This document shows, one piece after another, positions 205 to 26,583 of a stretch of DNA of 64,000 bases; the stretch's first letter is position 1; each line of letters begins with the position of its first letter. A program made the translations under genes and the position numbers. The notes below the pieces were generated by a model. That model saw only the letters and a program-made list of their open reading frames with translations. It did not search any database and was not told where the DNA came from. Origin of the DNA: a virus (taxonomy: Duplodnaviria > Heunggongvirae > Uroviricota > Caudoviricetes); IMG/VR virus record IMGVR_UViG_3300033463_000024; one strand, written 5' to 3'.

Positions 205-252
205 ACCGTGTCCCCGGTGTCCCCGGTAATTGGGGACTTGGGGGAATATCGT
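205..252 (+). repeat. 48-bp ACCGT-N38-ATCGT hairpin element, copy 1
   Basis: ACCGT...GGGGACTTGGGGGAAT-ATCGT, then AAGGAGAC RBS. Confidence 0.95.
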
Positions 253-280
253 GTGAATGTAAGCAAAAAGGAGACATGCA

Positions 281-613
281 ATGAGAAAACCAACTGCAAG
301 CGGCATCAAGGCGCGTCTTTTCGAGAGTGCCTACTCGCGTGACCTCGCAAAGTTCAAGGACAAGCTGAACGCCCTGATGAAGGAAATTTCGGATGACGGG
401 TACTGGCTAGGCTACCACGTGACGGATGGGGACGGGATTGAGCTCGTCATGCTCCCGAAAAGCATCACTACCGAAAGGGACGATGCCAACGGGCCGGAGT
501 TCTGTTTTGAGAACGTTCTCAACGAGTTCGAGCCCCTGATGAAGGATGGCGAGTTCGCGGTCACTCTTTACCCTGCAAAGGACTGCATTGACGAAACCTG
601 CTGGGTAAAGTAG
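281..613 (+). CDS. hypothetical protein
   Basis: ORF with AAGGAGAC RBS after repeat. Confidence 0.8.
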   Translation: MRKPTASGIKARLFESAYSRDLAKFKDKLNALMKEISDDGYWLGYHVTDGDGIELVMLPKSITTERDDANGPEFCFENVLNEFEPLMKDGEFAVTLYPAKDCIDETCWVK

Positions 614-627
614 GTTCAGCCCATGCA

Positions 628-675
628 ACCGTGTCCCCGGTGTCCCCGGCAACCGGGGACTTGGGGGACTATCGT
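628..675 (+). repeat. 48-bp element, copy 2
   Basis: Same boxes, 38-bp spacer. Confidence 0.95.
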
Positions 676-703
676 ATGAATGTAAACAAAAAGGAGACAG
701 CTT

Positions 704-1273
704 ATGGCAAATATCATCAACATGGAACATGAAGCCAGTATTGCTGACGGTCGTTCCACCGACAGTTGTGTGACCTTTGGTCGCGACTCGGAGCTTCTTG
801 TGATGGCGGTCGGAATGGGAGTCCCTACGGGGGACTGGGCATCGAGTGACGAGTACAGCCCGGAGCACATGTTCATCACGAGCGGCATGGAGCAGATTGT
901 CGCGCTCGCGTTCGGGGACGATGCATGGATACGCGACCAGATGGCGTGCGAGAGCGACTACGGCATTTGGTTCTGCACTTTCCGTCACAAGAAGTTTTCG
1001 CCAGGAAAGACCGGGAAGGAAGGCGACCCGTTATTCCGCATTGTCGCCAGTCATTTCGATGGCAAGGTGCCGACCATGTATTTGCAATGCATCTTCGAGG
1101 AACAGGGCGTATATACAAGCTGTTCCAACGACCACCGATTCAATACCCCTGCGGAACTTGCCGGAGTCATTGACGATGCCGAACGCGAAATGTGGGAAGC
1201 CCACGATGCGGGCGAACTTTTCCCGCCTCGTCCGCGCAAAGCTGAACCACTCGCGGAAGAGAGTGTGGAATAG
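704..1273 (+). CDS. hypothetical protein
   Basis: ORF with RBS after repeat. Confidence 0.8.
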   Translation: MANIINMEHEASIADGRSTDSCVTFGRDSELLVMAVGMGVPTGDWASSDEYSPEHMFITSGMEQIVALAFGDDAWIRDQMACESDYGIWFCTFRHKKFSPGKTGKEGDPLFRIVASHFDGKVPTMYLQCIFEEQGVYTSCSNDHRFNTPAELAGVIDDAEREMWEAHDAGELFPPRPRKAEPLAEESVE

Positions 1274-1312
1274 GGAAGTAAAAAATTTTAACATTTAGCC
1301 CAGGAGACAACC

Positions 1313-2380: not shown

Positions 2381-2386
2381 CCAGCA

Positions 2387-2434
2387 ACCGTGTCCCCCAG
2401 GTCCCCGTTCTTCGGGGACCTGGGGGACTATCGT
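2387..2434 (+). repeat. 48-bp element, copy 3 (perfect 16-bp stem)
   Basis: GTCCCCCAGGTCCCCG-TTCTT-CGGGGACCTGGGGGAC. Confidence 0.97.
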
Positions 2435-2463
2435 GTGGATGTAAGCAAAAAGGAGACAACATC

Positions 2464-3111
2464 ATGGACATTAAAGACAGCAAGTTTTTTGTCGCGGCAG
2501 ACCTCAAAATCCTCCGCGCACTCGGTTTCAGCAACCTTGAAGTCAATGTGGACACGGAAGGCGAATCGGAAGAAATCGCCCTCGGTGACGGTCAGTACCT
2601 TGTGGGCGAGAGGGGCGACCTCGGCACATCCTACTATGTGATTGACCGCGACTGCCACGAAGCGTTTACCCACGGCGAAACATCCATCATGGCCCTTGCG
2701 CACTACCAGGCGAGTTCATTGACCCACTACAACTACGATGAAATCCCGGACTATTTCTGGTGGTGGGAACTCCGCGAAATCTTCTTCCGCAAGAACAACA
2801 AGAAGGGCGTGAGCGCAAAGCGTTTCCAGAGGTACCGCGATGACATTGGCATGGCCGTGGTGTTCAGCGCGGACTGCAAGAAAGTGAAGCTCGCGAAGAA
2901 CAAGTTTTCCAAGTACGACAAGGACGGGTGCTATTCTCCCCTCCCGGACGAACTCCCGGCCTTTGACGAGTGGGAAACCATCAAGGACAATACAGGCAAG
3001 CCGCTTGTGGCCAACTGCGCCAAGGTGTTCGAGTCTAGCGTATTTGCCGAACGGTCACGTGCGCTCAACATCCTTCTCAAGAAGTTCTACAAGCGCATCA
3101 ACGGAAAATAA
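2464..3111 (+). CDS. hypothetical protein, paralogue of 3751-4410
   Basis: MDIKDSKFF...PLPDELPAFDEWE shared with downstream copy. Confidence 0.85.
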   Translation: MDIKDSKFFVAADLKILRALGFSNLEVNVDTEGESEEIALGDGQYLVGERGDLGTSYYVIDRDCHEAFTHGETSIMALAHYQASSLTHYNYDEIPDYFWWWELREIFFRKNNKKGVSAKRFQRYRDDIGMAVVFSADCKKVKLAKNKFSKYDKDGCYSPLPDELPAFDEWETIKDNTGKPLVANCAKVFESSVFAERSRALNILLKKFYKRINGK

Positions 3112-3133
3112 ATTTTCAAAAGGAGACAACATC

Positions 3134-3672: not shown

Positions 3673-3720
3673 ACCGTGTCCCATGTGTCCCCGTTCTTCG
3701 GGGACCTGGGGGACTATCGT
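3673..3720 (+). repeat. 48-bp element, copy 4
   Basis: Same boxes, 38-bp spacer. Confidence 0.95.
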
Positions 3721-3750: not shown

Positions 3751-4410
3751 ATGGACATCAAGGAAAGCAAGTATTTCACGGAAACAGACCTAAAGGTTCT
3801 TCGCGCCCTCGGTTTCAGGAAGCCGGAAGTTGAAGAAGGCGCCGACTATGGCGAGGAAATCTACCTCGGCAATGACACTTACCTGTACGGGCAACCGAAG
3901 GACATCGCATACGCCAGTACCGGCTATTACGACTACTTCGTATATGACCGCGATTCAGAAGAAAGCTATCGCCATACCGACCATGCTCTCATGGCAATCG
4001 CCGAGTTCATGGCGGGTCATCTTGCCTGCGATTTCTATGACGATATCCCAGACTTCTTTTGGCCGAATGAACTCCATACCATTACCACGCGCCTGAACCT
4101 GGTTCATAAGGTAGTGACCGTCAAGCGTTGCCAGACATGCCGCAGTGAACTTGGCTACGCCTTTGTCATCAACGGGGACGGTTCGCAGATAAAGATAGCA
4201 AAGAACAAGTTTACGAACGAAGACAATTACGGGAACTATGTTCCTCTGCCGGATGAACTTCCTGCATTTGACGAATGGGAAGCCATCATAGGCAAGGACG
4301 GTAAGCCGCTTGTGGCTGACTGTTCCCATGTGTTCAAGACGAGTTCCTACCGCGAGCAGTGCTGTTTGCTCAATCGTGTCGTGAAGGAACTTCATGACCG
4401 CATGGACTAA
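3751..4410 (+). CDS. hypothetical protein, paralogue of 2464-3111
   Basis: MDIKESKYF...PLPDELPAFDEWE; ATG after RBS. Confidence 0.85.
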   Translation: MDIKESKYFTETDLKVLRALGFRKPEVEEGADYGEEIYLGNDTYLYGQPKDIAYASTGYYDYFVYDRDSEESYRHTDHALMAIAEFMAGHLACDFYDDIPDFFWPNELHTITTRLNLVHKVVTVKRCQTCRSELGYAFVINGDGSQIKIAKNKFTNEDNYGNYVPLPDELPAFDEWEAIIGKDGKPLVADCSHVFKTSSYREQCCLLNRVVKELHDRMD

Positions 4411-4820: not shown

Positions 4821-4868
4821 ACCGTCCCCCGATCGATCCCGGCATGCCGGGACCTGGGGGATTATCGT
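4821..4868 (+). repeat. 48-bp element, copy 5
   Basis: Inner stem CCCGG-CATG-CCGGG. Confidence 0.95.
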
Positions 4869-4895: not shown

Positions 4896-5150
4896 ATGAT
4901 TCAACATATTGCTTATTACAACGACCCTATCGACATCTTCGAGCTGATGAACAAGGATGCCAAGAGCATCGTCAATTATTACAAGAAGGGCAAGGGTGCG
5001 TATTTGCGCCCTAACGACCCTGATTACGCCCCTATACAGGGATGCCATCCGGTTATGGTGGGCAAGGAAAAGTGGTACGTCAAGAAGTCCATCGACCGTA
5101 CGAAACTTGATTCCGATGGCAACTACATCGACTTGTACAAAGCAATTTAG
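4896..5150 (+). CDS. hypothetical protein
   Basis: RBS after repeat. Confidence 0.75.
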   Translation: MIQHIAYYNDPIDIFELMNKDAKSIVNYYKKGKGAYLRPNDPDYAPIQGCHPVMVGKEKWYVKKSIDRTKLDSDGNYIDLYKAI

Positions 5151-5175
5151 CAAACATATCCAAAGGAGACAAACA

Positions 5176-5664
5176 ATGAAAGGCAATTTCGCAAAGTTGG
5201 CCATTTTGGTCAAGAATACTGTCCGCATGGACGAAGCATCAAAGATTATCGGAAGCCGTGATGAATCCGGCACAATCCTCTCCGAGCTTACCTCGCTTTT
5301 CTCGGTGACCATTGACGAGGAATTGGCTCACGCCATGAGGGCAAGCCTTTCCGGTCTTTCGCCCGATGACAAAATCTCTGTTGAGGAAAGCAAGTTTGAG
5401 ACTTCAACATCGAAGGATTCATCGGCAAAGCAGATTGACTACATCTTTATGCTCACGGGCAATTTCACGGGCGTTATCAAGTTGCGCCTTACATTCAATG
5501 TAGAAATGGGCAAAGTTGATTTCTACATGCAGACGCTGGCGCAGGATGATAGCGGCAAGGTAGTTGGTGAGAACAGTATCGGGGAAGACGAACTCTGCGG
5601 CATCCCGACCGCCCTCCCGATAGCTGTAACGTTCATGCTCAGGGACTGCAAAAAGAATGGATAA
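5176..5664 (+). CDS. hypothetical protein
   Basis: ATG after AAGGAGAC. Confidence 0.75.
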   Translation: MKGNFAKLAILVKNTVRMDEASKIIGSRDESGTILSELTSLFSVTIDEELAHAMRASLSGLSPDDKISVEESKFETSTSKDSSAKQIDYIFMLTGNFTGVIKLRLTFNVEMGKVDFYMQTLAQDDSGKVVGENSIGEDELCGIPTALPIAVTFMLRDCKKNG

Positions 5665-5667: not shown

Positions 5668-5715
5668 ACCGTCTGCCGATCGATCCCGGTCCTTCGGGAC
5701 CTGGGGGAGCATCGT
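5668..5715 (+). repeat. 48-bp element, copy 6
   Basis: Same boxes, 38-bp spacer. Confidence 0.95.
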
Positions 5716-5742: not shown

Positions 5743-6279
5743 ATGACAATCCACAATCTCATAAACGGCACCGCAACCCTCGACATTACTGTTGATGCCA
5801 AGAATCACGTTACCGCCGTGTTCAGCGACCCGAATACCTACGATGAACGCGAATTTACCGTGACCTGCAACACGGACAACGCGTTCATGGTGCTTCAAGA
5901 CATCATTGACCAGTTCGGTTTCGCAGATAACCCGTTCTTCAAGGCGTTTGGATGGGAACTGGAAGGCACAAAGGAAGCTACCGTAGCCAAGGAAGCCCCC
6001 CTCAATACCCCGACAAGAAAGCTTGAATACGGCGTGATTACGGCTTATCCGCACTCCGTCAAGTTCACGGCAATCCTCTCGGACATGAAGGGCGTGGCGG
6101 TCGCAGAAAGCCCGGAAATCATCTTCCTTAAGCCATCCCATCCGGCTTACATCCCGTGCAATGCATCGAGCGACAAGTTCGCCAAGCTAACCTCGTGGCT
6201 TGCAGAAAGGAACATCGCATACGAGACATCGGGCATTGCGGACTACGCCGAAACAATCTCGTTCCTGGTCGAAAAGTAG
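5743..6279 (+). CDS. hypothetical protein
   Basis: RBS after repeat. Confidence 0.8.
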   Translation: MTIHNLINGTATLDITVDAKNHVTAVFSDPNTYDEREFTVTCNTDNAFMVLQDIIDQFGFADNPFFKAFGWELEGTKEATVAKEAPLNTPTRKLEYGVITAYPHSVKFTAILSDMKGVAVAESPEIIFLKPSHPAYIPCNASSDKFAKLTSWLAERNIAYETSGIADYAETISFLVEK

Positions 6280-6283: not shown

Positions 6284-6331
6284 ACCGTATAGCCCAGGTG
6301 CCGGATGCCACGGCACCTGGGGGAACATCGT
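6284..6331 (+). repeat. 48-bp element, copy 7
   Basis: Compensated stem CCCAGGTGCCG/CGGCACCTGGG. Confidence 0.95.
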
Positions 6332-6368: not shown

Positions 6369-7049
6369 ATGAGTAAGAGTAAGATTAAAAAGTTCCCGCA
6401 TGAAATCGACTGTTGCCTGAAGAACGTGCATATCAAGGTCATCAAGACCCGTTCTCGCGGCAAGGACAAATACGTTTACGAAATCAGCGCAGACGGTACA
6501 GAACCGTTCATCCTCGACCCATGTTTGAGCTATGATGCAGGCGAATGCCCGGAATTTGAAGATACATGGTGCGGTGGCAAATGGGACAACGGCAAGTTCA
6601 AGGGTTGCGAATATGACATCAACATCATGGACAAGAGCGATTTCGGTGGCGAAACTGACGATGACAACGTTGGTCTCCGCGCCGCCATGTATGGTTGCGA
6701 AATTGTCGATGGTGAGACACAGACCAATACCAATGACGAAATCCCGTTCATCCCGGTAACATGCTGGTTCGAGAACAGCAAGGGCAAGCGCACCGAGTTC
6801 AAGTGCGATGACTCGGAAAACTTCGTTGAACTATTTGGCGAATGGGATGGTAAGAGACTCCCGACCGCCAAGGAACGCGAATTTACCGTCACGGGTACCC
6901 TCATGTTCGAGGTCACGTATGTCACGAAGGCGACCAACAGCGAAGATGCCAAGAAGGAAGCCTTCAAGCGACTAACCGAAATTTACCACAAGAAGGGTAT
7001 CGAAAATCTCGGAGTTCTCGGTAGCTTAACCATAAAAGAAAAACCATAA
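6369..7049 (+). CDS. hypothetical protein
   Basis: RBS after repeat. Confidence 0.8.
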   Translation: MSKSKIKKFPHEIDCCLKNVHIKVIKTRSRGKDKYVYEISADGTEPFILDPCLSYDAGECPEFEDTWCGGKWDNGKFKGCEYDINIMDKSDFGGETDDDNVGLRAAMYGCEIVDGETQTNTNDEIPFIPVTCWFENSKGKRTEFKCDDSENFVELFGEWDGKRLPTAKEREFTVTGTLMFEVTYVTKATNSEDAKKEAFKRLTEIYHKKGIENLGVLGSLTIKEKP

Positions 7050-7076
7050 AATATTTTTTGAAATTTGAGGTACAAC

Positions 7077-7469
7077 ATGGCCGAAACCAAACTCGAAACC
7101 ATCATCCGCGTAACCAAGGAACTTAATGCAATCAAGGCTAAACACCCGCGCATCATAGACATCGGAGTCATGAGCGTGGAAGAGTTCATGGATACGGTTG
7201 GCAAAGACCTTCCTGCATGCGTTGTGAAACCGCTGAAGCCGCATAATGGCGGGTATGCGGGCTACATCCGCATCAGGTGCTCCGATGAACTGAAACGCAA
7301 GTTGAACTGCCCGTCCATTTGGGAATATTTGTTCCATGACAAGGCAGAAGATGCCATCATCGGCGCGGTGCAGGTGCTCCATGCCGCCTGCCTCAACAGG
7401 AACAACCATGACGAGGCGAAGTTCCTCGGCGAGCTTTCCAGGGAACTCCACATCGACCGTGTAGCGTAG
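7077..7469 (+). CDS. hypothetical protein
   Basis: GAGG RBS; 3' end runs into repeat copy 8. Confidence 0.75.
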   Translation: MAETKLETIIRVTKELNAIKAKHPRIIDIGVMSVEEFMDTVGKDLPACVVKPLKPHNGGYAGYIRIRCSDELKRKLNCPSIWEYLFHDKAEDAIIGAVQVLHAACLNRNNHDEAKFLGELSRELHIDRVA

Positions 7470-7503
7470 CTACCCGGTCCCGTGGGACCTGGGGGATCAT
7501 CGT
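7456..7503 (+). repeat. 48-bp element, copy 8
   Basis: Same boxes, 38-bp spacer. Confidence 0.93.
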
Positions 7504-7530: not shown

Positions 7531-7767
7531 ATGGCCAAAATTAAAAAAGAAAAGACCCCGAAGCCAAAGAAGAAAAAAGTTCGCAAGGCTTACAATATCA
7601 AGTGGGACACCGATGGCGCAACGCTGAAGGAATGTGGACTCCCGCGTTCCGTGGTCATCCCTGATGGCGTTGCGGACGAAGATGTCGGGGACTGGCTCTC
7701 GGATGAATATGGCTACTGCCATGACGGGTACACGACTAACTTTGAAATGGAAGAAGATGAAGCCTAA
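7531..7767 (+). CDS. hypothetical phage protein
   Basis: RBS; basic N-terminus, acidic C-terminus. Confidence 0.75.
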   Translation: MAKIKKEKTPKPKKKKVRKAYNIKWDTDGATLKECGLPRSVVIPDGVADEDVGDWLSDEYGYCHDGYTTNFEMEEDEA

Positions 7768-8367: not shown

Positions 8368-8793
8368 GTGACAAAGATTAAACTGACTGAACGCAAGTTC
8401 ACTCCGAACGAGCTGAAACAACTGAACTCCAAGACATACCTTTCCTGGAAGTGTACCCGCCAGACAATCATTATTGGGAATGACACCGATTTCGCCTTAT
8501 TTACAGTGAGCGAATGTCTCGGTTGTCCGCACCACTCAATCGGCATCACACCTATTGTGAAGCGTGGAGATAACGCATTGAAGGTGGTTGTATCCTTCAT
8601 GGACAAGGGGGAAGCCAAGCGGTTTTCCGCAATCGGTGCGACTACGGTAATGTTCACGACCGATGGTACTATTGCTGATGCGGTCGGCCTGGGTTCCGGT
8701 CTCGCCAAGGCACAGTACAAATTGTTGTACCAACTCCCGTGCGGAGCAGTCCGTGTGGGACGCGTACCGAAGAAACAAAAAGCTACCGTGTAG
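8368..8793 (+). CDS. hypothetical protein
   Basis: GTG after GGAGAC; ends inside repeat copy 9. Confidence 0.7.
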   Translation: MTKIKLTERKFTPNELKQLNSKTYLSWKCTRQTIIIGNDTDFALFTVSECLGCPHHSIGITPIVKRGDNALKVVVSFMDKGEAKRFSAIGATTVMFTTDGTIADAVGLGSGLAKAQYKLLYQLPCGAVRVGRVPKKQKATV

Positions 8794-8832
8794 CACGCCT
8801 CCCCGGTCCTTCGGGACCTGGGGGATCATCGT
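8785..8832 (+). repeat. 48-bp element, copy 9
   Basis: Same boxes, 38-bp spacer. Confidence 0.93.
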
Positions 8833-9894: not shown

Positions 9895-9942
9895 ACCGTG
9901 TTCCAGGTGTCCCCGATCTTCGGGGACCTGGGGGAACATCGT
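9895..9942 (+). repeat. 48-bp element, copy 10
   Basis: Same boxes, 38-bp spacer. Confidence 0.95.
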
Positions 9943-9983: not shown

Positions 9984-10610
9984 ATGAACGAAAGACAGAA
10001 AGCCGCATTTGAACGTACTGAAAAGCGCTTAAAAGAGCGCTTGACCAGATATGAAAACGATGAACTTGCATTGAGCCTCATTGAATACAACCCGAAGAAG
10101 GATGGCACCGCACGCCAAAATTTCGCGGACAACTTTGCCATCCGTGGTCTTGGGACTGCATTGAAGTACCCTAGCGGCTACTCATGTCGCCGTGTGGAAG
10201 TGAAGCCAGTAACATACAACGGCTACAAGGGTTCTACTGTTAGAAGTCTTGACATCAGCGTTCTCGAAATTGAGAAGCCGGAGGACATGCAGAAGGCGGG
10301 AATTGACCGCCCGGTTAAGCATGTAAATGACGAACGTTTCGCATTCAGCATTTTCAGCGACTTCGAGGATATGCCGACAGATACTACTGCGGAACAGTAT
10401 GTGAAGGTCATCCATGAAAAGATCATTCCGGGAATCAGGGCAAAGCAGGAACAGATTAAGCAGGAACTTGCAATGCTCCCCGAAATGTTCAACCAGTTTA
10501 TCATCATGGGCAACATGTACAATAAACTGGAAAAGGAGACCGAGGGCTCGTACCTTTTGAAGTACGCCCTTAGCGACCTTGTTAAGTCAATCCCCGATTT
10601 GCACGACTAG
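9984..10610 (+). CDS. hypothetical protein
   Basis: RBS after repeat. Confidence 0.8.
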   Translation: MNERQKAAFERTEKRLKERLTRYENDELALSLIEYNPKKDGTARQNFADNFAIRGLGTALKYPSGYSCRRVEVKPVTYNGYKGSTVRSLDISVLEIEKPEDMQKAGIDRPVKHVNDERFAFSIFSDFEDMPTDTTAEQYVKVIHEKIIPGIRAKQEQIKQELAMLPEMFNQFIIMGNMYNKLEKETEGSYLLKYALSDLVKSIPDLHD

Positions 10611-10624
10611 ATTTGTTGTCTCCA

Positions 10625-10762
10625 GCCGGGCGTATGCAAGTGGGCACAAGCGCCCCGCGATTACCCAGATGAAATGACCCAAGACAGAGAGAACTGTTAG
10701 GGTGGGGAAAGTGGGGAGACGAGCTAAACATCGCCACGGAGGTTCGAATCCTTCCCCCGGCA
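10625..10762 (+). ncRNA. tRNA-like RNA with 52-nt insert replacing the anticodon loop
   Basis: Acceptor GCCGGG(C)G/CCCCGGC, D arm, stem CCCCGC/GTGGGG, long variable region, T arm GGAGG-TTCGAAT-CCTTC. Confidence 0.6.
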
Positions 10763-10840
10763 ATTTTTATTTTTATTTTTCTTCAAATCAGGTAACAACA
10801 ACAGAAACTTAGAAGCATTCAAATCCATATTGGAGAAGCT

Positions 10841-11005
10841 ATGCCAGGAAAGAAATATTTAATATCATATAATTGGAAACGCAACCTTAACGGTCAGTAT
10901 TGTTACTACGACCATTACGAAACCGATTCACTCGTTATAGCTATCGTAAAGTTTTTGCTATTAAAAAGAAAATATGAAGTAATGACAATCGAATATCGTG
11001 GCTAA
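10841..11005 (+). CDS. small hypothetical protein (54 aa), AT-rich island
   Basis: GGAG RBS, ATG...TAA read by hand. Confidence 0.55.
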   Translation: MPGKKYLISYNWKRNLNGQYCYYDHYETDSLVIAIVKFLLLKRKYEVMTIEYRG

Positions 11006-11033
11006 TGATATTTCCAAAAAGAGGAATTAAATA

Positions 11034-11303
11034 TTGAAAAATTCGCAAAAGGATAGATACTACAACAGACTGCAAAAATGTCTGAAGGAAATTGGTAAAC
11101 TCACTCCGTTGAGATATGTGGAATGGCATGAGCATCGTGATAAAGTCTTGAAAGAGTATGGATTTACGATGGATGATTATTACAAGATGTGCAGCCTGAC
11201 TGAATCCAACACTAAGGTCAGATGCGACGAAAGCGTTAGGACATTCAAGGAAAAACAAAAGATTATGCTTGACAAGAAGCTTGATGAATGTGAAATTCAA
11301 TGA
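11034..11303 (+). CDS. hypothetical protein, AT-rich island
   Basis: TTG start after AGAGGA. Confidence 0.65.
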   Translation: MKNSQKDRYYNRLQKCLKEIGKLTPLRYVEWHEHRDKVLKEYGFTMDDYYKMCSLTESNTKVRCDESVRTFKEKQKIMLDKKLDECEIQ

Positions 11304-11387
11304 GATTGATATGTTGAACCAAGTAGATTGTTGATTTAATGATACTTCCAAAAGAGGACTTAAATTAATAAAAGGAAAATAAAATTC

Positions 11388-11588
11388 ATGGAAAAAATCT
11401 TATTACTTATGGCATTTTCCCTATTAACAATCGGTTGCGGCGATACTTCAAATAATGCTATACAGCCGAAAGAAATTTGCCATTACGAGACTGCTTGCGC
11501 TGATGTACAAAGTGGTGGTTTTCGCGACAGACATTCTGGTTGTAAAAAACCATACCAGAAACAAGTTTGTGAAGAAATCCATTATTAA
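11388..11588 (+). CDS. putative small lipoprotein
   Basis: MEKILLLMAFSLLTIG-C signal peptide/lipobox-like. Confidence 0.65.
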   Translation: MEKILLLMAFSLLTIGCGDTSNNAIQPKEICHYETACADVQSGGFRDRHSGCKKPYQKQVCEEIHY

Positions 11589-11645
11589 GGTTTAATGGTA
11601 CTTTCAAAAAAGAGGACATAAATTAATAAAAGGAAAATAAAATTT

Positions 11646-11846
11646 ATGAAACAAATGCTTATCGGGTTCATTCTCGGCGTGGTCATGTGCCTATCCATGG
11701 GAGCTGAACTCTATCATCCGGTGCGTAGCATCATTACCCGTACCGAATCAAACTTCCGTCCTGACATTGCATCCGATTTCAAGGCGGTGCTGATGAACCA
11801 GGAAACAATCTACAACCTTATCAAGGACAGATGCCATTCCAACTAG
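11646..11846 (+). CDS. small secreted/membrane protein
   Basis: Hydrophobic N-terminus MKQMLIGFILGVVMCLSMGA. Confidence 0.65.
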   Translation: MKQMLIGFILGVVMCLSMGAELYHPVRSIITRTESNFRPDIASDFKAVLMNQETIYNLIKDRCHSN

Positions 11847-11852
11847 TCATGG

Positions 11853-11881
11853 TTGCCAAAGTTGTCATGGCATGCTACATT
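11853..11881 (+). promoter_or_regulatory. sigma70-like promoter (class II), leaderless
   Basis: TTGCCA-N17-TACATT, ATG 6 nt downstream. Confidence 0.75.
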
Positions 11882-11887
11882 TGAAGT

Positions 11888-12595
11888 ATGAAGAAGCTAA
11901 TCTTAAATATCCCGCACTCAACTCCATGCCTGGACTTTTCCAAATGGAAAGACCCCGAAGCCGCAAAGGCTGAACATGACAAGTGGACGGACTGGCATAC
12001 CGATGCCATGTTCAGTATCCTTGGCTCGTTCAACGAAGGCAAGGTCGAAAAGGTCGTGTTTGGTCGTTCCCGATATGAAGTGGACGTAGAACGCCTGCTC
12101 CATGACCCTATGGAGGGTATCGGGCAAGGCATCATCTATGACAGCTTGAAGAACGGGCAGGTGGAAGTCCGCGATGTATCCGTTGATGACTCCGTTGAGC
12201 TTACCCGCGCATACGTGAACCATTGGAACAAGGTGGCTTCGCTCTGTACGGGCGATGGATTGCTGATTGACTGTCATTCATTCCCTAGCGACTACAAGGA
12301 AGCGATGAACGCCAACGGGGAAATGGTAGATGTCTGCATCGGGTTCAACAATGACAACACGCATCCCGGCGAGGAAGTAATCAGGACAATCAAGCGAGAG
12401 TTTGAACTGCATGGGTACAAGGTGGGCATCAACTCCCCGTTCAGCAACGCGTTCGCCCCTGTTCCCAATTTCCCGTCCGTGATGATTGAACTCCGCAAGG
12501 GCATATATATGGATGAAGGCACCCTAAAACTTCTGTCGGGTGCCTACAAAGTGAATCAGGTCTTGAACGAGATATACAGAATCCTGACGGCCTAG
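11888..12595 (+). CDS. N-formylglutamate amidohydrolase family protein
   Basis: IPHS, SRYEVDVER, IDCHSF, VMIELRKGIYMDE motifs. Confidence 0.85.
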   Translation: MKKLILNIPHSTPCLDFSKWKDPEAAKAEHDKWTDWHTDAMFSILGSFNEGKVEKVVFGRSRYEVDVERLLHDPMEGIGQGIIYDSLKNGQVEVRDVSVDDSVELTRAYVNHWNKVASLCTGDGLLIDCHSFPSDYKEAMNANGEMVDVCIGFNNDNTHPGEEVIRTIKREFELHGYKVGINSPFSNAFAPVPNFPSVMIELRKGIYMDEGTLKLLSGAYKVNQVLNEIYRILTA

Positions 12596-13310: not shown

Positions 13311-13358
13311 ACCGTGTCCCATGTGTCCCCGATCTTCGGGGACCTGGGGGACCATCGT
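13311..13358 (+). repeat. 48-bp element, copy 11
   Basis: Same boxes, 38-bp spacer. Confidence 0.95.
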
Positions 13359-14181: not shown

Positions 14182-14229
14182 ACCGTGTCGAAATACCCCC
14201 GGTTCCATGGGGACCTGGGGGACTATCGT
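14182..14229 (+). repeat. 48-bp element, copy 12
   Basis: Same boxes, 38-bp spacer. Confidence 0.93.
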
Positions 14230-15176: not shown

Positions 15177-15224
15177 ACCGTGCCGGGAATCCCCCGGATC
15201 CACGGGGGCCTGGGGGCTCATCGT
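15177..15224 (+). repeat. 48-bp element, copy 13
   Basis: Stem CCCCCG/CGGGGG. Confidence 0.93.
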
Positions 15225-15744: not shown

Positions 15745-15792
15745 ACCGTCCGACTATGCGCCCGGATCCACGGGGACCTGGGGGCACATCGT
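15745..15792 (+). repeat. 48-bp element, copy 14
   Basis: Same boxes, 38-bp spacer. Confidence 0.93.
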
Positions 15793-16828: not shown

Positions 16829-16875
16829 TAAATCGTGATTTGGTAGATTTGTTGTCTCCGCGTCCCCCTGTCCCA
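16829..16875 (+). repeat. 47-bp direct repeat, left copy (flanks endonuclease)
   Basis: TAAATCGTGATTTGGTAGATTTGTTGTCTCCGCGTCCCCCTGTCCCA; 1 mismatch to 18207-18253. Confidence 0.95.
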
Positions 16876-16961
16876 CCGTTACGATATGGTTCTCACCCGG
16901 TTCTCATTGAGGAACCATACGGTGCTACGAGGGGGATATAATATATGTAAAAGGAGTATCT

Positions 16962-18209
16962 ATGGGATATACTTGTGGTCGTCATTTAACTAAAACTCTA
17001 TGTAGGCGTATAGCGAAAACATGTAGCACAATTACTGAATTTGCGAAAAAAGATATCCCCGCATATAACAAAGCATTAGCCAATGGATGGCTTGATGAAT
17101 GGTTTATCCGACTATCCCACAAACCTTTTACTAAAGAAGATTGCTTACTTATAGCAAAACAATGTTCATCTCGTGCTGAGTTTAAGCGTAAATCTCACGC
17201 GGCTTATAACAATGCATTACAGAATGGGTGGATAGATGAATATGCATGGTTCAAAACAACAGCCGAACTTAGACGGGAAAGACGCACCTTTACCGATGAT
17301 GATGTAATTAACGCATCTAAGAAATATACTAAACTAAGTGATTTTTCCAAAGCTGAACCGGCCCGTTGTGCTATGGCATATAAAAGAGGTTTAATTAATA
17401 AAATGCCGTGGCTAACTCGTAATGCTGAAGTAATGAACCGAAAATGCCTTGATTGTGTTTATGTTTATGAATTTTCGCTACATAAAGTTGCTTATATCGG
17501 ACGTTCGGTAGAACCACATTGCCGAGACATTAAGCATCATAAGTCTACCGATGTCGTTGCTCGCTATGCAATAGCTCACCATTTGCAAATTCCAACGATG
17601 AAAATTCTTAAAGATGGCATCACTTATAAACAAGGGGCAATGCTAGAAGCTAAAATGATGCAGACTTATATCAACCGCGGCTGGCATCTTTTAAATAAAG
17701 CACCGGCGGGAAGTATTGGTGGACTAGGTGCCGGAAAACTTACTAAAACCTATTGTATCAATGTCGCTCGTAAATACGCCACGGTTGCCGAGCTAGTAGC
17801 TAATGATGGTTCAGTATATAACAAATTATGCAAATGTAAATGGCTTTCGGAATGCGATTGGCTTCATAAGAAACATGTCCCTAAAGGAACTTGGAGCAAT
17901 ATGTCAAAGGAAGAACTTTTATTGGAAGCCCGTAAATATTCCTCTCGAAATGAATTAATGGATAAATTGAAAAGCGTGTATGAGATTATTCGCGCAAATG
18001 GATGGATGCCCGAAGTATTCCCGAATAGCCTCAGTGCGCCTAAAAAGGTTGCCCAATGCACAACAGATGGGAGACTCATTTGTATTCATAATTCAATTAG
18101 TGATGCCGCTAAAGCGTTAAACACTAAGAATCCGTGTATTTCGGCAATTTGCCGTGGAGTACCCGGTAAGCACACTTGCAAAGGGTTTACATTTAAGTTC
18201 GTGGAGTAA
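16962..18209 (+). CDS. GIY-YIG-type homing endonuclease with helical repeats and C-terminal NUMOD1-like HTH
   Basis: CVYVY...AYIGRS motif; five ~38-aa repeats; VAQCTTDG...SISDAAKAL...ISAICRG...KGFTFKF; visibly AT-richer DNA. Confidence 0.8.
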   Translation: MGYTCGRHLTKTLCRRIAKTCSTITEFAKKDIPAYNKALANGWLDEWFIRLSHKPFTKEDCLLIAKQCSSRAEFKRKSHAAYNNALQNGWIDEYAWFKTTAELRRERRTFTDDDVINASKKYTKLSDFSKAEPARCAMAYKRGLINKMPWLTRNAEVMNRKCLDCVYVYEFSLHKVAYIGRSVEPHCRDIKHHKSTDVVARYAIAHHLQIPTMKILKDGITYKQGAMLEAKMMQTYINRGWHLLNKAPAGSIGGLGAGKLTKTYCINVARKYATVAELVANDGSVYNKLCKCKWLSECDWLHKKHVPKGTWSNMSKEELLLEARKYSSRNELMDKLKSVYEIIRANGWMPEVFPNSLSAPKKVAQCTTDGRLICIHNSISDAAKALNTKNPCISAICRGVPGKHTCKGFTFKFVE

Positions 18210-18253
18210 ATCGTGATTTGGTAGATTTGTTGTCTCCACGTCCCCCTGTCCCC
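18207..18253 (+). repeat. 47-bp direct repeat, right copy
   Basis: Starts with the endonuclease stop codon; overlaps repeat copy 15. Confidence 0.95.
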
Positions 18254-18282
18254 ATTGTCTCCGGGGACACGGGGGATTATCG
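18235..18282 (+). repeat. 48-bp element, copy 15 (degenerate)
   Basis: CCCCCTGTCCC...GGGACACGGGGG-ATT-ATCGT; ACCGT box missing. Confidence 0.75.
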
Positions 18283-18323
18283 TAAAGGCACAAACAATAA
18301 CCACTTAGCAAAAGGAAACAGTC

Positions 18324-19009: not shown

Positions 19010-19038
19010 TTGCCAAAGCTGGCAATAAGTGCTATATT
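19010..19038 (+). promoter_or_regulatory. sigma70-like promoter (class II) for tRNA
   Basis: TTGCCA-N17-TATATT. Confidence 0.75.
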
Positions 19039-19053
19039 TGCTCTCGAAATCAC

Positions 19054-19125
19054 GCGCTCGTGGTGTAATGGACAGCACATCAGCTTCCGAAGCTGATAAT
19101 TCCAGTTCGAAGCTGGACGAGCGTA
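19054..19125 (+). tRNA. tRNA-Arg(CCG)
   Basis: GCGCTCG/CGAGCGT acceptor, TCAGC-TTCCGAA-GCTGA anticodon arm, TCCAG-TTCGAAG-CTGGA T arm; no encoded CCA. Confidence 0.9.
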
Positions 19126-19275
19126 CTAATGGAACTGGACCCCTGAATGGTGCAAATTTGATATACCATGCCCGTGAAAGCGAGCGATGGAACTCAAACA
19201 CCCAAACAACCAAACACCATCTATCAAACCTTGCGCCTGGGCCCGGTACCATCAATTCTACATCATGAAACCCAG

Positions 19276-19304
19276 AGACACGGGAATGGTCCCGTGTCTT
19301 TTTT
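19276..19304 (+). terminator. intrinsic terminator
   Basis: AGACACGGGA-ATGG-TCCCGTGTCT followed by T-run. Confidence 0.8.
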
Positions 19305-19312: not shown

Positions 19313-19360
19313 ACCGTGTACCGATGGTTCCAGGTCTCCCAGGACCTGGGGGAACATCGT
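19313..19360 (+). repeat. 48-bp element, copy 16
   Basis: Stem CCAGGTC/GACCTGG. Confidence 0.93.
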
Positions 19361-19400: not shown

Positions 19401-20033
19401 ATGAAAAGACTCAACAGGCTTCTCGCCGCAATCAAGAAATTCTCTTCTGTGGACAATGTTGCCCGCTACATTCACGGTATCAAGTTTGACCTCAACCGAC
19501 AGACAATCGAGGCAACCGATGGCAATGCCGGAATAATTGTCAAGGGTAGCAAGGGACTTGTTGCCGCGATGGCAAATGAATATGCCGAACATCTTGGGCT
19601 TGAACCGGTCGGGGGCGACTTTGGTGTAGTCAAGCTCGCCCCGGCAAACGGCAAGATGTGGCCTAATGCCGAACGCCTCGATAAGGAAAATACGCTTAAG
19701 GCAGACTTGCGCAAGTGCCTCAGTTTCGAACACGACCCGAAAACGAACAATTACGCACATATTCACAATGGCCAGTTCCAGCGTCTCAATCAGTTCTGCA
19801 AGGTGGTCAAGGTGCCGTTGAAGCTCATTCCGGGCATGACATATCTCGCCCCTGTCATGCAATATGGAAAGAGCAAGTTCAATGGTGAAGAAATCTACTT
19901 CTGCATCGCACAGATGCCGAAATTCCGCGCTCTATATGACGCACAGGACAATCTCATTACCACCTGTGTCCAGTATGAAAGCATGGATGAAATCGACAAT
20001 GAAGCCATGCAGGTGTTCAAGCAGATGGCATAA
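19401..20033 (+). CDS. hypothetical protein
   Basis: ATG after AAGGAGAC. Confidence 0.8.
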   Translation: MKRLNRLLAAIKKFSSVDNVARYIHGIKFDLNRQTIEATDGNAGIIVKGSKGLVAAMANEYAEHLGLEPVGGDFGVVKLAPANGKMWPNAERLDKENTLKADLRKCLSFEHDPKTNNYAHIHNGQFQRLNQFCKVVKVPLKLIPGMTYLAPVMQYGKSKFNGEEIYFCIAQMPKFRALYDAQDNLITTCVQYESMDEIDNEAMQVFKQMA

Positions 20034-20327: not shown

Positions 20328-20375
20328 GCCGTGTAGACAACCCTCCCGGTCTTCGGGGGCCTGGGGGATTATCGT
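20328..20375 (+). repeat. 48-bp element, copy 17
   Basis: GCCGT-N38-ATCGT. Confidence 0.9.
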
Positions 20376-20414: not shown

Positions 20415-21179
20415 ATGCCGCAAGCCGCACACAACTTCTATGAAAACGAATTGAAGCCAACCCTTCTCGAAGTATTCGAGGAAATCTACATTGATGTCAC
20501 TAAAGGTGACGAATGGTACCAAATCGGATGCGAAGAGTCCGGCGTACCGGAAGATTGTGAATGGGAAGACCGCGATGGCTTCTGGAGCCACAACAACGGC
20601 GGTGTCGAAATGTCCTTCATCCCGAGCACTTCCATCTTCTCCAACGGTTGCAGACATGCTCCATGTATTCAAGCGTGGGTGGATGGGCAGTACAAGGAAT
20701 GCAAGGAAAATGCATTGGACGATGAAAACTACCTTGAATGGAAGGCTGAACAGGAAGCCGAAGGCAAGGAGTCTGATGTCGAATACTGGCTCTCCGATAC
20801 CGATGATGGCAACGAGTTCGAGAATGACCATGAAGATTCCTACATGGAATCCACTCCGTTCTGCAATGTGAAAGCATGGTTGCAGGGAGTCGATGGCTAC
20901 CAGTTCAGGGGCGAAGTTGAACCTGATACCGTCTTGAAGCTCCACTTCGAGTTCTGCTTCAATGATGACCTTGGATACGGTCGTCCGTACATTTCCTGGT
21001 GCCCCGGTGTCGGCGACCACCCGAAGTGCGCTGCCAACATCTACTTCGAGGCCAAGAATGTCGAATTTGCCCGTCAGCTTCTCAAGACCAAGATTCTTGA
21101 AATGGCCAAGCTCCCGGACGATGAACAGCGCGAAACGGTCGATTTCTATGCAGACGGTCTCGATGATAGACAGTTCTAG
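20415..21179 (+). CDS. hypothetical acidic protein
   Basis: RBS after repeat. Confidence 0.8.
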   Translation: MPQAAHNFYENELKPTLLEVFEEIYIDVTKGDEWYQIGCEESGVPEDCEWEDRDGFWSHNNGGVEMSFIPSTSIFSNGCRHAPCIQAWVDGQYKECKENALDDENYLEWKAEQEAEGKESDVEYWLSDTDDGNEFENDHEDSYMESTPFCNVKAWLQGVDGYQFRGEVEPDTVLKLHFEFCFNDDLGYGRPYISWCPGVGDHPKCAANIYFEAKNVEFARQLLKTKILEMAKLPDDEQRETVDFYADGLDDRQF

Positions 21180-24175: not shown

Positions 24176-24186
24176 ACTCCATTTGA
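23980..24186 (+). CDS. hypothetical protein
   Basis: AAGAAGGA RBS-like; ends just before repeat copy 18. Confidence 0.65.
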   Translation: MPDSTYIYNDRQGNIEVMRGAFGYNIILTRNDGEWEGKKHTTTACVGDFSKERLQEIATKLQEFVDSI

Positions 24187-24209
24187 TCCGTGCCGTGAAA
24201 CATGAAACA

Positions 24210-24257
24210 ACCGTATAACCCAGTGCCCCGTTTTCATGGGACCTGGGGTATCATCGT
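24210..24257 (+). repeat. 48-bp element, copy 18
   Basis: Same boxes, 38-bp spacer. Confidence 0.9.
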
Positions 24258-24283
24258 ATGTACCGAAACGAAACGAGGCAACT

Positions 24284-24538
24284 ATGACTATCACGCTTAA
24301 CGACCCTATACAGAAAAAGTCCATGAGCAAGGAAGCCAACGCGAACGTGCTCGCGTGCAAGACGAACATGTTTGGCATCCTGAACTCCCTGGGCAACCGG
24401 GTGGACATATATTCCGGTACAAACTTCTTCGACCACAACAAGAAACTTCTGCAACGAATCTTCCTTAAATCAACGTTCATCCGATGTGTCCTGTGGTTCG
24501 ACAAGAACCATGCGACCTGCCTGGGGGTAAAGCTATGA
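24284..24538 (+). CDS. hypothetical protein
   Basis: GAGG RBS after repeat. Confidence 0.7.
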   Translation: MTITLNDPIQKKSMSKEANANVLACKTNMFGILNSLGNRVDIYSGTNFFDHNKKLLQRIFLKSTFIRCVLWFDKNHATCLGVKL

Positions 24539-24843
24539 TAATGCAATGGAAACAGCGCAATGGCGCAATCATGACCGTGGACATTGACGCGATAATGCGC
24601 CTGGAATATATCCCAAACGAGAAATACGGTCGCCCCATGCTTACCGTGATGACATGCGATGTGGTCGATACAATCAGCGGTCGCCCGGCCCTTCCCGGGG
24701 ACCCGGCCTACATACCCGACTGCGACACCGCGGAAGTCTTGATTAACCAGCCACAGAAGGGGCCGACCTCATGGAAGCTGTTTAGGATTCCGACCGAGAT
24801 TATGGAGCTTCACAACTACCTTGTGAAGTGCAAGTCAAACTGA
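24535..24843 (+). CDS. hypothetical protein
   Basis: ATGA coupling. Confidence 0.7.
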   Translation: MIMQWKQRNGAIMTVDIDAIMRLEYIPNEKYGRPMLTVMTCDVVDTISGRPALPGDPAYIPDCDTAEVLINQPQKGPTSWKLFRIPTEIMELHNYLVKCKSN

Positions 24844-24847
24844 TTCA

Positions 24848-24895
24848 ACCGTGTACACCATGTTCCCGTTCTTTGGGGACCTGGGGGATCATCGT
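24848..24895 (+). repeat. 48-bp element, copy 19
   Basis: Same boxes, 38-bp spacer. Confidence 0.95.
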
Positions 24896-24917
24896 AAGGC
24901 AACCGAAAGGAGATTAA

Positions 24918-26129
24918 ATGCGAAACGAATATAAATGCGTTAGCGGATGGCGCAACATTGCCGCACCTATCTTGTGGAATGCACTCACGAAGCCATCCTC
25001 CACTGATAGCACGCGCACCGACCGTACGGAAGCCATGAATGACGCCCTAGCAAGCCTCCACCTGAATGCAGAGGTAGTCGGCATCAAGCAGGGTCCCGTC
25101 ATTACCCGCTATATGGTAAAGGTGGGCGATGGCATCCGCGTGCGAAATGTGCGAAATAATCTCGAAGACCTCGCAATGCGCCTTGGCGTGCCATGCAAGT
25201 CCATCCGCATCGAGTGTAACGATGGCCTTATCGGCATCGAAGTCCCGAACGAGACACGCTCAGTAGTCCCGTGCCGTACCATCGTGACCCCAGATAACAG
25301 CGGCCTGATACAGTTCGGCTCGCTCAATATTGGCATGGGTGTCGATATTGTTGGAAATCCGGTACACTTCAACCTCGCAAAGGCACCGCACATGCTTGTC
25401 GCGGGACAGACAGGTTCAGGCAAGAGCGTGTTCCTCAACTCGCTCATCTGCAACCTCCTGATGAACAACCATCCCAATGAATTATCCCTCGTCCTGATCG
25501 ATCCGAAGGGAACTGAAATGCAGTCTTATGCGGCGATACCGACAGTCCAGGTCATCAACAACGTGCGTGATGCCGTAAAGAAGCTCGCCTCGCTTGTCGA
25601 TGTGATGGAAGCCCGTTACAGAATGTTTACGGAAGCAACGGTTTCGTGCGGAAAGCCTGTACGTACGCTTGATGACTACATGGAAACTGTCACCGATTAC
25701 ACACGCGACATAAGCAACCGTTGCCGCATCGTCGTGGTAATTGATGAAGTTGCCGACCTGATGGCATGCGATAAACAGGGCATGGAAACAAGCATCGCCC
25801 GTCTCGCCGCGAAAGCCCGTGCCGCAGGCATCCACCTAGTCCTCGCAACGCAGAGACCTTCCCGCGATGTAATCACAGGCACAATCAAGGCAAACCTCCC
25901 GACCCGCATCGCGTTCCGGCTCCCGTCACAGGTAGACTCCAAGACTATCCTTGATGAAATCGGTGCCGAGTCGCTTCTGGGACGTGGGGACATGCTGTTC
26001 AAGACTACCGATGGAGTTACCCGTCTGCATGGATGCTGGATGTCCGATAAAGACATCATGAACTTCATCAACATGTACAAACAGATTTACAGTATAATCA
26101 ACAGGAGAACCAATGAAAAACCCGTTTAA
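24918..26129 (+). CDS. FtsK/SpoIIIE-family DNA translocase motor domain (no TM, no gamma domain)
   Basis: GPVITRY alpha domain, PHMLVAGQTGSGKS, LIDPK, VVVIDEVADLM, ARAAGIHLVLATQRPS, GAESLLGRGDML. Confidence 0.93.
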   Translation: MRNEYKCVSGWRNIAAPILWNALTKPSSTDSTRTDRTEAMNDALASLHLNAEVVGIKQGPVITRYMVKVGDGIRVRNVRNNLEDLAMRLGVPCKSIRIECNDGLIGIEVPNETRSVVPCRTIVTPDNSGLIQFGSLNIGMGVDIVGNPVHFNLAKAPHMLVAGQTGSGKSVFLNSLICNLLMNNHPNELSLVLIDPKGTEMQSYAAIPTVQVINNVRDAVKKLASLVDVMEARYRMFTEATVSCGKPVRTLDDYMETVTDYTRDISNRCRIVVVIDEVADLMACDKQGMETSIARLAAKARAAGIHLVLATQRPSRDVITGTIKANLPTRIAFRLPSQVDSKTILDEIGAESLLGRGDMLFKTTDGVTRLHGCWMSDKDIMNFINMYKQIYSIINRRTNEKPV

Positions 26130-26562
26130 GTGGATGCATGACAAGGCATACAATGACCGCAAGAACCACCCGGTTCGGGTCAGCCTGGACTTCATGTTCA
26201 TCGAGGCGATAGTTGCCGCATGGCAGGCGTTGTGGATTGTATGCAATGATGTAACCCAATGCCCAGGCACGATGTTGCTCGCCTTCCTGAATCTCCTTGG
26301 TTTCGGCGGTTTATTGTGTCATGAACTCGATAAAATCATCGGGGTTTGCACACATGACTGGCGACACGCAGATATTAGAAACCCGGACATCATCAGTCTT
26401 ATTCTAGGTCTTGAAAAGGCCGAAAAGGACATCAACGAAGGAAAGCTCGCCTGGAAGGCTGCGTTCTACGACCCATCTAAGGAGCGAATCGAATATACCC
26501 ACATTCCTCTGGATCCGAAGCCGGAAGAAGAACCGACCGTATCCGAGGGCATCCAGGGCTAA
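26113..26562 (+). CDS. hypothetical membrane protein
   Basis: AGGAG RBS; hydrophobic segments; ends inside repeat copy 20. Confidence 0.7.
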   Translation: MKNPFKWMHDKAYNDRKNHPVRVSLDFMFIEAIVAAWQALWIVCNDVTQCPGTMLLAFLNLLGFGGLLCHELDKIIGVCTHDWRHADIRNPDIISLILGLEKAEKDINEGKLAWKAAFYDPSKERIEYTHIPLDPKPEEEPTVSEGIQG

Positions 26563-26583
26563 GGGGACCTGGGGGCGAATCGT
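26536..26583 (+). repeat. 48-bp element, copy 20 (last)
   Basis: ACCGT-N38-ATCGT; only CCAGG/CCTGG pairing left. Confidence 0.9.

Follow-up and report, generated by a model that had tools for sequence, protein, structure and literature searches.

The DNA analyzed here (the window, 64,000 nt at full length) comes from a phage of the class Caudoviricetes and represents the minus strand of IMG/VR virus record IMGVR_UViG_3300033463_000024, a contig of 203,111 bp whose completeness is put at 52% by CheckV. On the plus strand of the window, a 48-nt hairpin unit recurs in front of mostly small genes. An earlier note on this DNA had listed 20 copies of the unit, and every one of them was present where the note had placed it (Table 1). 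A repeat search of the window gathered 19 of the 20 into a single family. The pattern CTGGGGGNNNATCGT, with at most one mismatch allowed, matched 19 times on the plus strand of the window (0.30 matches expected) and 0 times on its minus strand; the note, too, had seen no copy on the minus arm. Copy 15, which carries ACGGGGG and a degenerate 5' box, fell outside these matches. When the full record was reoriented and scanned with a weight matrix, 35 copies, all of the same orientation, were detected in the first 42.5 kb, and neither strand of the remaining 160 kb had any. The array is thus larger than reported: because it reaches the contig end, the earlier finding corresponds to the right-hand 26 kb of a longer array, in which ∼35 mostly small genes are preceded by a unit. 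The two-box pattern of the unit (described below) is essentially unique within IMG/VR, and searches of IMG/VR with a short pattern of the unit returned chance matches only. An alternative genetic code was also considered; recoding any single stop codon lengthened the open reading frames (ORFs) about equally, and the standard code was therefore kept.

The order of elements is ACCGTGT, a covarying hairpin, CCTGGGGGAnnATCGT, an A/C-rich leader, a ribosome-binding site (RBS) of the AAGGAGAC type, and ATG. At finer scale, ACCGTGTYCC is followed by a few bases, the hairpin, CCTGGGGGA, two bases, and ATCGT; the 48-nt core extends from ACCGT through ATCGT, and unit plus leader make a repeat of ∼60 nt. 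As described previously, units are found at the end of the preceding gene, with starts ranging from 27 nt inside it to 64 nt past its stop codon and usually falling 3 to 15 nt past it; three copies overlap the stop of the previous ORF. The A/C-rich leader with its RBS was likewise borne out; it places 22 to 45 nt between ATCGT and the start codon. Single units can also head multi-gene stretches, as copies 10 and 17 do.

Table 1. Unit copies and associated transcription features in the window.
Feature	Coordinates	Strand	Details
Unit copy 1	205-252	+	28-nt leader, then ORF 281-613 (110 amino acids)
Unit copy 2	628-675	+	28-nt leader, then ORF 704-1273 (189 amino acids), no Pfam match
Unit copy 3	2387-2434	+	Strongest fold, -39 kcal/mol; 29-nt leader, then ORF 2464-3111
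Unit copy 4	3673-3720	+	30-nt leader, then ORF 3751-4410
Unit copy 5	4821-4868	+	Inner stem TCCCGG/CCGGGA; 27-nt leader, then ATG at 4896
Unit copy 6	5668-5715	+	Begins 3 nt past the stop of ORF 4957-5664; followed by ORF 5743-6279
Unit copy 7	6284-6331	+	Compensated inner stem GGTGCCG/CGGCACC; 37-nt leader, then ORF 6369-7049
Unit copy 8	7456-7503	+	Covers the final 14 nt of ORF 7065-7469; followed by ORF 7531-7767
Unit copy 9	8785-8832	+	40-nt leader, then ATG at 8873
Unit copy 10	9895-9942	+	ORF 9984-10610; head of a multi-gene stretch of 3.4 kb, AT-rich island included
Unit copy 11	13311-13358	+	Repeat search and pattern match
Unit copy 12	14182-14229	+	Repeat search and pattern match
Unit copy 13	15177-15224	+	Repeat search and pattern match
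Unit copy 14	15745-15792	+	Repeat search and pattern match
Unit copy 15	18236-18283	+	Degenerate 5' box; left arm within a 46-nt direct repeat
Unit copy 16	19313-19360	+	12 nt past the canonical terminator 19274-19301; followed by ORF 19401-20033
Unit copy 17	20328-20375	+	5' box GCCGT; head of a 3.9-kb multi-gene stretch from ORF 20415-21179
Unit copy 18	24210-24257	+	GGGGT variant; weakest RBS; ATG at 24284
Unit copy 19	24848-24895	+	22-nt leader, then FtsK/SpoIIIE-like ATPase gene 24918-26129
Unit copy 20	26536-26583	+	Last of the array; covers the final 27 nt of ORF 26113-26562; 45-nt leader, then sigma-factor gene
Phage sigma-70-family factor gene	26629-27408	+	259 amino acids; Sigma70_r2 at 26.4 bits plus weak r4; phrog_351, E = 4e-28
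Host-type promoter, AT-rich island	11853-11881	+	Upstream of ORF 11888-12595 (FGase family)
Host-type promoter before tRNA-Arg	19010-19038	+	TTGCCA, 17 nt, TATATT with TG; genome-wide consensus class
Canonical intrinsic terminator	19274-19301	+	12-bp stem, then T-run; after tRNA-Arg 19054-19126

An information profile was computed over 137 distinct copies from the phage and its relatives (several rumen-type metagenome contigs with many copies, found by the two-box pattern), with the final T of ATCGT numbered -7. A-11, C-9, G-8, and T-7 were invariant (137/137), and T-10 was present in 134 copies. A pyrimidine occupied -12 in 136 of the 137 and a purine -6 in all, followed downstream by a pyrimidine at -1 in 134 copies and a purine at +1 in 135; the commonest discriminator was GGGA. 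On the upstream side, the G-run CCTGGGGGA (-22 to -14) carried 1.7 to 2.0 bits at each of its five G. The distal box ACCGTGTYCC spans -54 to -45, the proximal box is GGRACATCGT, and the distance between the two was 43 nt in 112 and 44 nt in 20 of 134 copies. A-11 and T-7 are the two bases flipped out by sigma-70-family factors. With both of these invariant and a pyrimidine-purine step ∼7 nt downstream, the 137 copies match the sigma-70-type -10 pattern at the level of sequence. Other placements and promoter classes were considered and set aside. A promoter upstream of the unit was rejected, as positions -101 to -58 are almost without information except for a T-rich tract in copies that follow a terminator. 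Inspection of the sequences also ruled against an extracytoplasmic function (ECF)-type reading as GGAAC, 16 to 17 nt, and CGT (the actual spacing is 12 nt) and against a sigma-54 reading, for which GG and GC are out of register.

The position of the units relative to terminators also bears on their function. Directly upstream of 36 of 136 distinct copies lies a canonical terminator with a GC stem, often a GAAA loop, and then a T-run that begins 28 to 33 nt before ACCGT; within the window, copy 16 is such a copy. No host-type promoter was found between terminator and unit in these 36 copies, so the downstream gene needs a promoter there. The phage also has a separate promoter class with a sigma-70-like consensus (TTGCCA, 14 nt, TTTGCTACATT), which we call host-type. 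Elsewhere in the genome it has ∼35 occurrences, most of them on the other arm and many leaderless, and in the array region it is found on the plus strand five times, each time in place of a unit. One of these host-type promoters, together with a canonical terminator of its own, flanks a transfer RNA gene inside the array, tRNA-Arg(CCG) (19010-19301). A third (late) promoter motif was sought and not found in the 203-kb contig.

The earlier note had stated that no integrase or RNA polymerase subunit lies in the window. The integrase half of this statement stands, and extends to the 203-kb contig, where no tyrosine or serine recombinase was found; the other half does not, given the sigma-factor gene that follows the last unit (Table 1). 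The contig encodes two phage sigma-70-family factors, both with regions 2 and 4. The second gene (L009, 1348-2160) lies elsewhere in the contig, its product is 28% identical to the first, and its promoter is a near-consensus host-type one (TTGACA, 17 nt, TGTTATATT). One sigma gene under the last unit and the other under a host-type promoter suggest a cascade.

The -10 and start-site geometry, the adjacency to terminators, the two phage sigma genes, and the separate host-type class all indirectly favor the promoter reading that the earlier note had offered as one of two. Its label "early" is doubtful, because the units are unlike the host-type promoters of the phage and a phage factor is probably needed. 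We interpret each unit as a putative phage-specific promoter of the sigma-70 family combined with an RNA hairpin, forming a compact regulatory cassette of the kind known as promoter-early stem-loops (PeSLs), and we give this interpretation a probability of about 0.5. Host-type promoters of this phage are themselves often fused to terminator hairpins (e.g., 29230-29275 and 47900-47940), yielding PeSL-like composites on the other arm in which the stem or loop of the hairpin contains the TTGCCA hexamer and its T-run falls within the promoter spacer. Such overlap of host-type promoters by terminator hairpins makes a composite reading of the units natural.

The interior of the hairpin is variable yet paired, with 77 distinct apical stems among 134 copies. 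Folded one sequence at a time, copies averaged -21.9 kcal/mol, ∼3 standard deviations below shuffles. Many form a two-part hairpin comprising an outer helix, an internal loop, and a variable inner stem; the outer helix pairs the 5' box with GGRACA(T)CG of the 3' box. The hairpin spans about -42 to -23, with its center near -31 and loops of 3 to 10 nt. The stated structure was paired in 76.6% of cells, compared with 38 to 54% when the partner was slid. The Y base of GTGTYCC and the R base of GGRAC, 35 nt apart, covary (Fisher P = 2e-7), with T/A in 62 copies, C/G in 10 (plus 14 of a bulged class), C/A in 8, and T/G in 1. RNAalifold predicted no consensus structure on a MAFFT alignment, because the stems lie in shifted registers, and the per-sequence folds and the stated structure were used instead. 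Ten copies searched against Rfam 15, ribozymes included, gave no match at the gathering threshold or at E ≤ 5. The sense strand was the better folded in 97 of 134 copies and had 242 G-U pairs versus 83 on the antisense strand, which leans toward a structure that acts in RNA or in the non-template strand.

If the hairpin acts in RNA, the unit might have no promoter activity at all and serve as an intercistronic signal within polycistronic RNAs made from a few host-type promoters: an endonuclease processing site, a 3' stabilizer, or a binding site for a translation regulator. Processing sites of this sort are exemplified by the RNase III sites in the T7 early transcript, whose lower stem, internal loop, and upper stem resemble the unit. 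The covarying stems, the ability of the boxes to pair, and a sense strand that folds better with three times more G-U pairs would all follow, as would the restriction of all copies to the coding strand and their fixed distance to the start codon. Host-type promoters are also available on the plus strand within and before the array. We nevertheless consider an RNA-only element possible but unlikely. A quarter of the copies stand after a canonical terminator with no promoter between, and their hairpins are equally well kept; moreover, an RNA site would need neither the near-invariant 43-nt spacing nor the -10 and start-site geometry. Nor was any Rfam family, ribozymes included, matched, and no RNase III gene was found in the 203-kb contig.

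The hairpin could also be a structure in DNA. A promoter might be recognized through it, either by supercoil-driven extrusion or in single-stranded form, by an enzyme or factor whose gene would lie in the half of the genome absent from the contig. Extrusion of the inner hairpin (∼20 nt) would move the distal ACCGTGT to the -35 position. The retention of a hairpin inside a promoter-like unit even after canonical terminators fits this mechanism, and both strands fold well (-25.1 and -23.2 kcal/mol), the box spacing is fixed while the interior varies, and the contig is only 52% complete. Recognition of this kind nonetheless seems quite improbable to us: no single- or multi-subunit RNA polymerase gene was found in the 203 kb (largest ORF, 907 amino acids), the geometry is unlike that of phage N4, with the hairpin center near -31 and loops of 3 to 10 nt, and the G-U excess favors the sense rather than the template strand. 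PF00940 and PF00562 had no match in the 203-kb contig, although the PF00940 control also matched nothing anywhere. The narrower proposal that the hairpin is obligatory for recognition, as extruded DNA or through a fold that puts ACCGTGT at -35, is one that we regard as rather improbable. The hairpin could thus act as an RNA 3' structure or attenuator for read-through transcripts, in the manner of PeSLs, or as a DNA structure for recognition, in the manner of N4.

Several observations weigh against the sigma-70-family interpretation. Positions -35 to -30 hold 0.2 to 1.1 bits, lie inside the variable hairpin, and contain no conserved -35 hexamer in the 137 copies, and CATCGT is a poor match to TATAAT. 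The contig is 52% complete, and a phage RNA polymerase gene may lie outside it. No U-tract follows the hairpin, which is thus not a canonical terminator, and the proposed -10 shares sequence with the 3' strand of the outer helix, which would be an odd arrangement if the two functions were independent. We considered the hairpin as a substitute terminator and rejected this possibility, since fold energy is equal with and without an upstream canonical terminator (P = 0.53); that the hairpin is equally stable after terminators argues against a role purely in upstream termination. Finally, the statistics on covariation and on breakpoints (below) ignore the relatedness of the copies.

A further alternative centers on the boxes themselves, as two similar binding sites through which a phage DNA-binding protein would repress or activate the array. 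One-orientation operators have a precedent in the stoperators of cluster A mycobacteriophages, and the unit has two conserved boxes at fixed spacing, in one orientation, and between genes. However, stoperators are four times shorter than the unit, an operator would explain neither the compensatory stem changes nor the start-site geometry, and no candidate repressor was identified; an operator function is therefore highly improbable in our judgment.

Under the favored interpretation of a phage promoter joined to an RNA hairpin, YATCGT would be the -10 hexamer, with the invariant G-run CCTGGGGGA as its upstream extension, and the conserved purine 7 nt farther on would be the transcription start. 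The RNA produced would consist of a short unstructured A/C-rich leader with a strong RBS ahead of the gene. Because the units are unlike host-type promoters and are absent as a class from Fibrobacter genomes, they are probably read by the host core RNA polymerase together with one of the two phage sigma factors. Host-type promoters, including that of the second sigma gene, would fire first, and the unit array would follow, including the sigma gene under its last copy. Folding of the hairpin would take place mainly in read-through transcripts of the preceding gene, where it would act as an attenuator or 3' stem-loop, as the PeSL stem-loop does; this is the least secure step of the scheme. Being ∼60-nt repeats present in dozens of same-orientation copies, the units would also serve as crossover points at which cassettes are duplicated, lost, moved, and replaced.

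Comparison with relatives bears directly on this last step. At least 55 copies were counted in the 43 kb fetched of JAEEGJ010001900.1 (398,643 bp), spread over 75 kb (the 258-333 kb region), and at least 28 in JAEEGL013721786.1 (299,887 bp). Ga0310690_10004218 has 28 copies in 19.5 kb, and several smaller contigs also carry units; all of the ∼180 copies are on one strand. The right half of the array is 88 to 96% identical to parts of JAEEGJ010001900.1, and the left half shares little DNA with it. The earlier note had proposed comparing gene content across related phages, and the breakpoints are indeed enriched at unit edges: 30% fall within 10 nt of an edge versus 11% at random, about three times chance, and 52% versus 18% within 40 nt. 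Homology typically begins at the 5' edge of a unit and ends just beyond its 3' edge. At copy 11, for example, homology to JAEEGJ010001900.1 ends exactly at the unit, and the first gene beyond it has been replaced. In the same relative, the orthologous counterpart of copy 12 has identical flanks around a different interior, a sequence pattern that suggests conversion between copies. Copy 13 and its gene occupy another array position there, with edges 1 and 5 nt from the unit edges, and the cassette downstream of copy 14 is a chimera of two cassettes of this relative. About half of the breakpoints are not at units, and one indel removes a unit and its gene with no copy left behind.

Such behavior raises the possibility, also put forward in the earlier note, of an integron-like array in which attC-like folded units allow cassettes to be captured or excised by a dedicated recombinase. 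The arrangement of small, mostly unassigned genes in one orientation, the structured repeats with a variable center, the breakpoints enriched at unit edges, and the one moved cassette all recall integrons. However, when the recombinase and RNA polymerase search was extended beyond the window, as that note had advised, none was found in the 203-kb contig (52% complete), and specifically no tyrosine recombinase (PF00589), serine recombinase, or Y1 transposase (PF01797). In JAEEGL013721786.1, the nine largest ORFs in the 8.8 kb before the first unit lack an integrase-family domain, and the gene just before that unit encodes a GIY-YIG endonuclease. The boxes ACCGTGTYCC and GGRACATCGT are not the attC cores RYYYAAC and GTTRRRY, and the terminators directly before 36 of 136 units indicate independent transcription units rather than promoterless cassettes under a common promoter. 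The indel without a residual copy and the half of breakpoints away from units are also at odds with site-specific capture. We thus see only a very small chance of an integron-like mechanism. Of the dual role suggested earlier, the exchange at units holds up and the integron-like mechanism is not supported. The enrichment of breakpoints is equally compatible with homologous exchange between repeats and with site-specific recombination, and cassette behavior overall matches homologous, PeSL-like exchange better than an integron. In addition to its proposed role in transcription, the unit most likely acts as the joint through which related phages exchange genes.

Most cassette genes have no family match, in agreement with the earlier description of them as mostly unannotatable. 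The recognizable genes driven by units encode a pentapeptide-repeat protein (1313-2380) and the FtsK/SpoIIIE-like ATPase that follows copy 19; the other cassette genes tested had no recognizable product. We propose that the unit-driven genes probably function in host takeover and anti-defense. ORF 2464-3111 in the copy 3 cassette is a paralogue of a gene in the copy 4 cassette, and these two cassettes are diverged tandem duplicates (repeat families D7 and D10). An AT-rich gene of 415 amino acids (16962-18209), with no Pfam match and, as its sole PHROG match, a family of unknown function, is flanked by a pair of 46-nt direct repeats with 98% identity (family D17; region 16829-18252); the right-hand repeat forms the left arm of the degenerate copy 15. 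An AT-rich island (10600-13250, 41% GC) contains no units and has two 49-nt repeats, 92% identical, before ORFs of 66 amino acids. It also contains an N-formylglutamate amidohydrolase-family (FGase) gene, 11888-12595, that has a host-type promoter.

Beyond the array, a TnpB-like gene (29877-31163, plus strand; 428 amino acids) encodes OrfB_IS605 and Cas12f1-like TNB domains; it is one of three solo TnpB genes in the contig, which has no Y1 transposase. The minus arm has a transfer-messenger RNA gene and five tRNA genes at 48.2 to 51.6 kb. At the array start in relatives, the first unit of JAEEGL013721786.1 is followed by ∼280 nt of GC-rich sequence (L227, 8838-9115) with no RBS and no obvious ORF. 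A GC-rich stretch after the first unit is also present in JAEEGJ010001900.1 and Ga0265301, and no Rfam match was found at the array start in these relatives. The next few units there are 330 to 460 nt apart and precede very small ORFs.

The possibility that the unit is a motif of the host was also examined and rejected. Among 81 Fibrobacteraceae genomes, a single complete copy was detected, in the Fibrobacter succinogenes metagenome-assembled genome RUG14562 (L403, 3357-3404, minus strand); matches in other bacteria were single, and their number was close to the chance estimate. The RUG14562 copy lies in a chromosome-like region with genes for a glyoxalase, a macro domain protein, a PNPOx protein, a RelB-like antitoxin, and ORF6N, ∼190 nt upstream of an ORF of ∼48 amino acids with a repeat-containing leader. 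This single copy is a further clue to the identity of the host.

Should the unit be a promoter, it would define what a phage sigma factor recognizes in an uncultivated lineage of rumen huge phages and would provide a sequence handle for a temporal class of >35 genes. If recognition also depended on the hairpin, the units would form a large family of hairpin promoters, the first one beyond the N4-like phages, used 35 to >55 times per genome in a ∼400-kb Fibrobacter phage and doubling as a linker for cassette exchange.

Each of several known systems shares part of this arrangement. In the host-takeover module of Bacillus phage SPO1, to whose repeated promoter/RBS units the earlier note had compared the layout, small genes in one orientation are served by a repeated strong promoter and RBS per operon, under a phage sigma cascade. 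The present array resembles it in its one-orientation small genes, repeated putative promoter and strong RBS, and phage-encoded sigma factors. SPO1 early promoters, however, follow the host sigma-A consensus without a conserved embedded hairpin or distal box, both of which the unit has. Coliphage N4 provides the precedent for a promoter-like site with a structurally conserved inverted repeat: its giant virion RNA polymerase uses three sites with a 5- to 7-bp stem and a 3-nt loop near the start. In the unit, by contrast, the hairpin center lies ∼31 nt upstream, and no virion polymerase gene was found in the 203 kb. Integron attC arrays share the small genes in one orientation and the folded repeats with paired ends and a variable center; the differences are the lack here of an integrase and attC cores, the internal terminators, the promoter-like geometry, and a repeat tied to the downstream start codon. 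In cluster K mycobacteriophages, many start codons are preceded by start-associated or extended start-associated sequences, and an inverted repeat precedes these motifs. The unit is similarly a repeated motif just before many start codons with an inverted repeat upstream, but the cluster K elements are much shorter, differ in sequence, are fewer, and lack -10-like geometry. With respect to repetitive extragenic palindromic elements and IS200-IS605 ends, no Y1 (HUH) transposase (PF01797) was found in the contig.

The PeSLs of the T4-type phages RB49/phi1, T4/PST, and KVP40/nt-1 consist of terminator hairpins that overlap promoters (PMC2839356, PMC4122927), and homologous exchange between these repeats has been shown experimentally (PMC2839356). 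Transcription termination at the stem-loop and the formation of mini-circles are further marks of PeSLs. T4-type terminase domains are encoded in our contig, with T4-like cyanophages as the best isolates at 35% identity; a gp23-type capsid gene was not found in the 203 kb (52% complete). Like a PeSL, the unit is an intergenic composite in which a stem-loop rich in G/C runs leads to a putative promoter, an RBS, and ATG. It is likewise repeated before small genes of unknown function within a hyperplastic region, in a phage whose terminase is of the T4 type, is located at points of insertion, deletion, and replacement between close relatives, and has an AT-rich tract upstream of some copies. It differs in having no sigma-70 consensus, with no -35 and with YATCGT after a G-run as the -10; in a hairpin that sits between two conserved boxes at fixed spacing, overlaps the -10, and lacks a U-tract; and in copies that lie closer together and resemble each other more (35 copies within 42 kb, and at least 55 in one relative). 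If correct, this comparison would carry the idea of a regulatory cassette that is also a recombination linker beyond coliphages and vibriophages, into a T4-type lineage that is very distant and into a class of promoters other than those of the host. The PeSL model does not explain an embedded and compensated hairpin at fixed box spacing, a feature that could point to new promoter recognition or regulation. Taken together, our best reading is that PeSL cassettes are the closest known system and that the unit is a PeSL variant that adds a distal box, fixed spacing, and a compensated hairpin.

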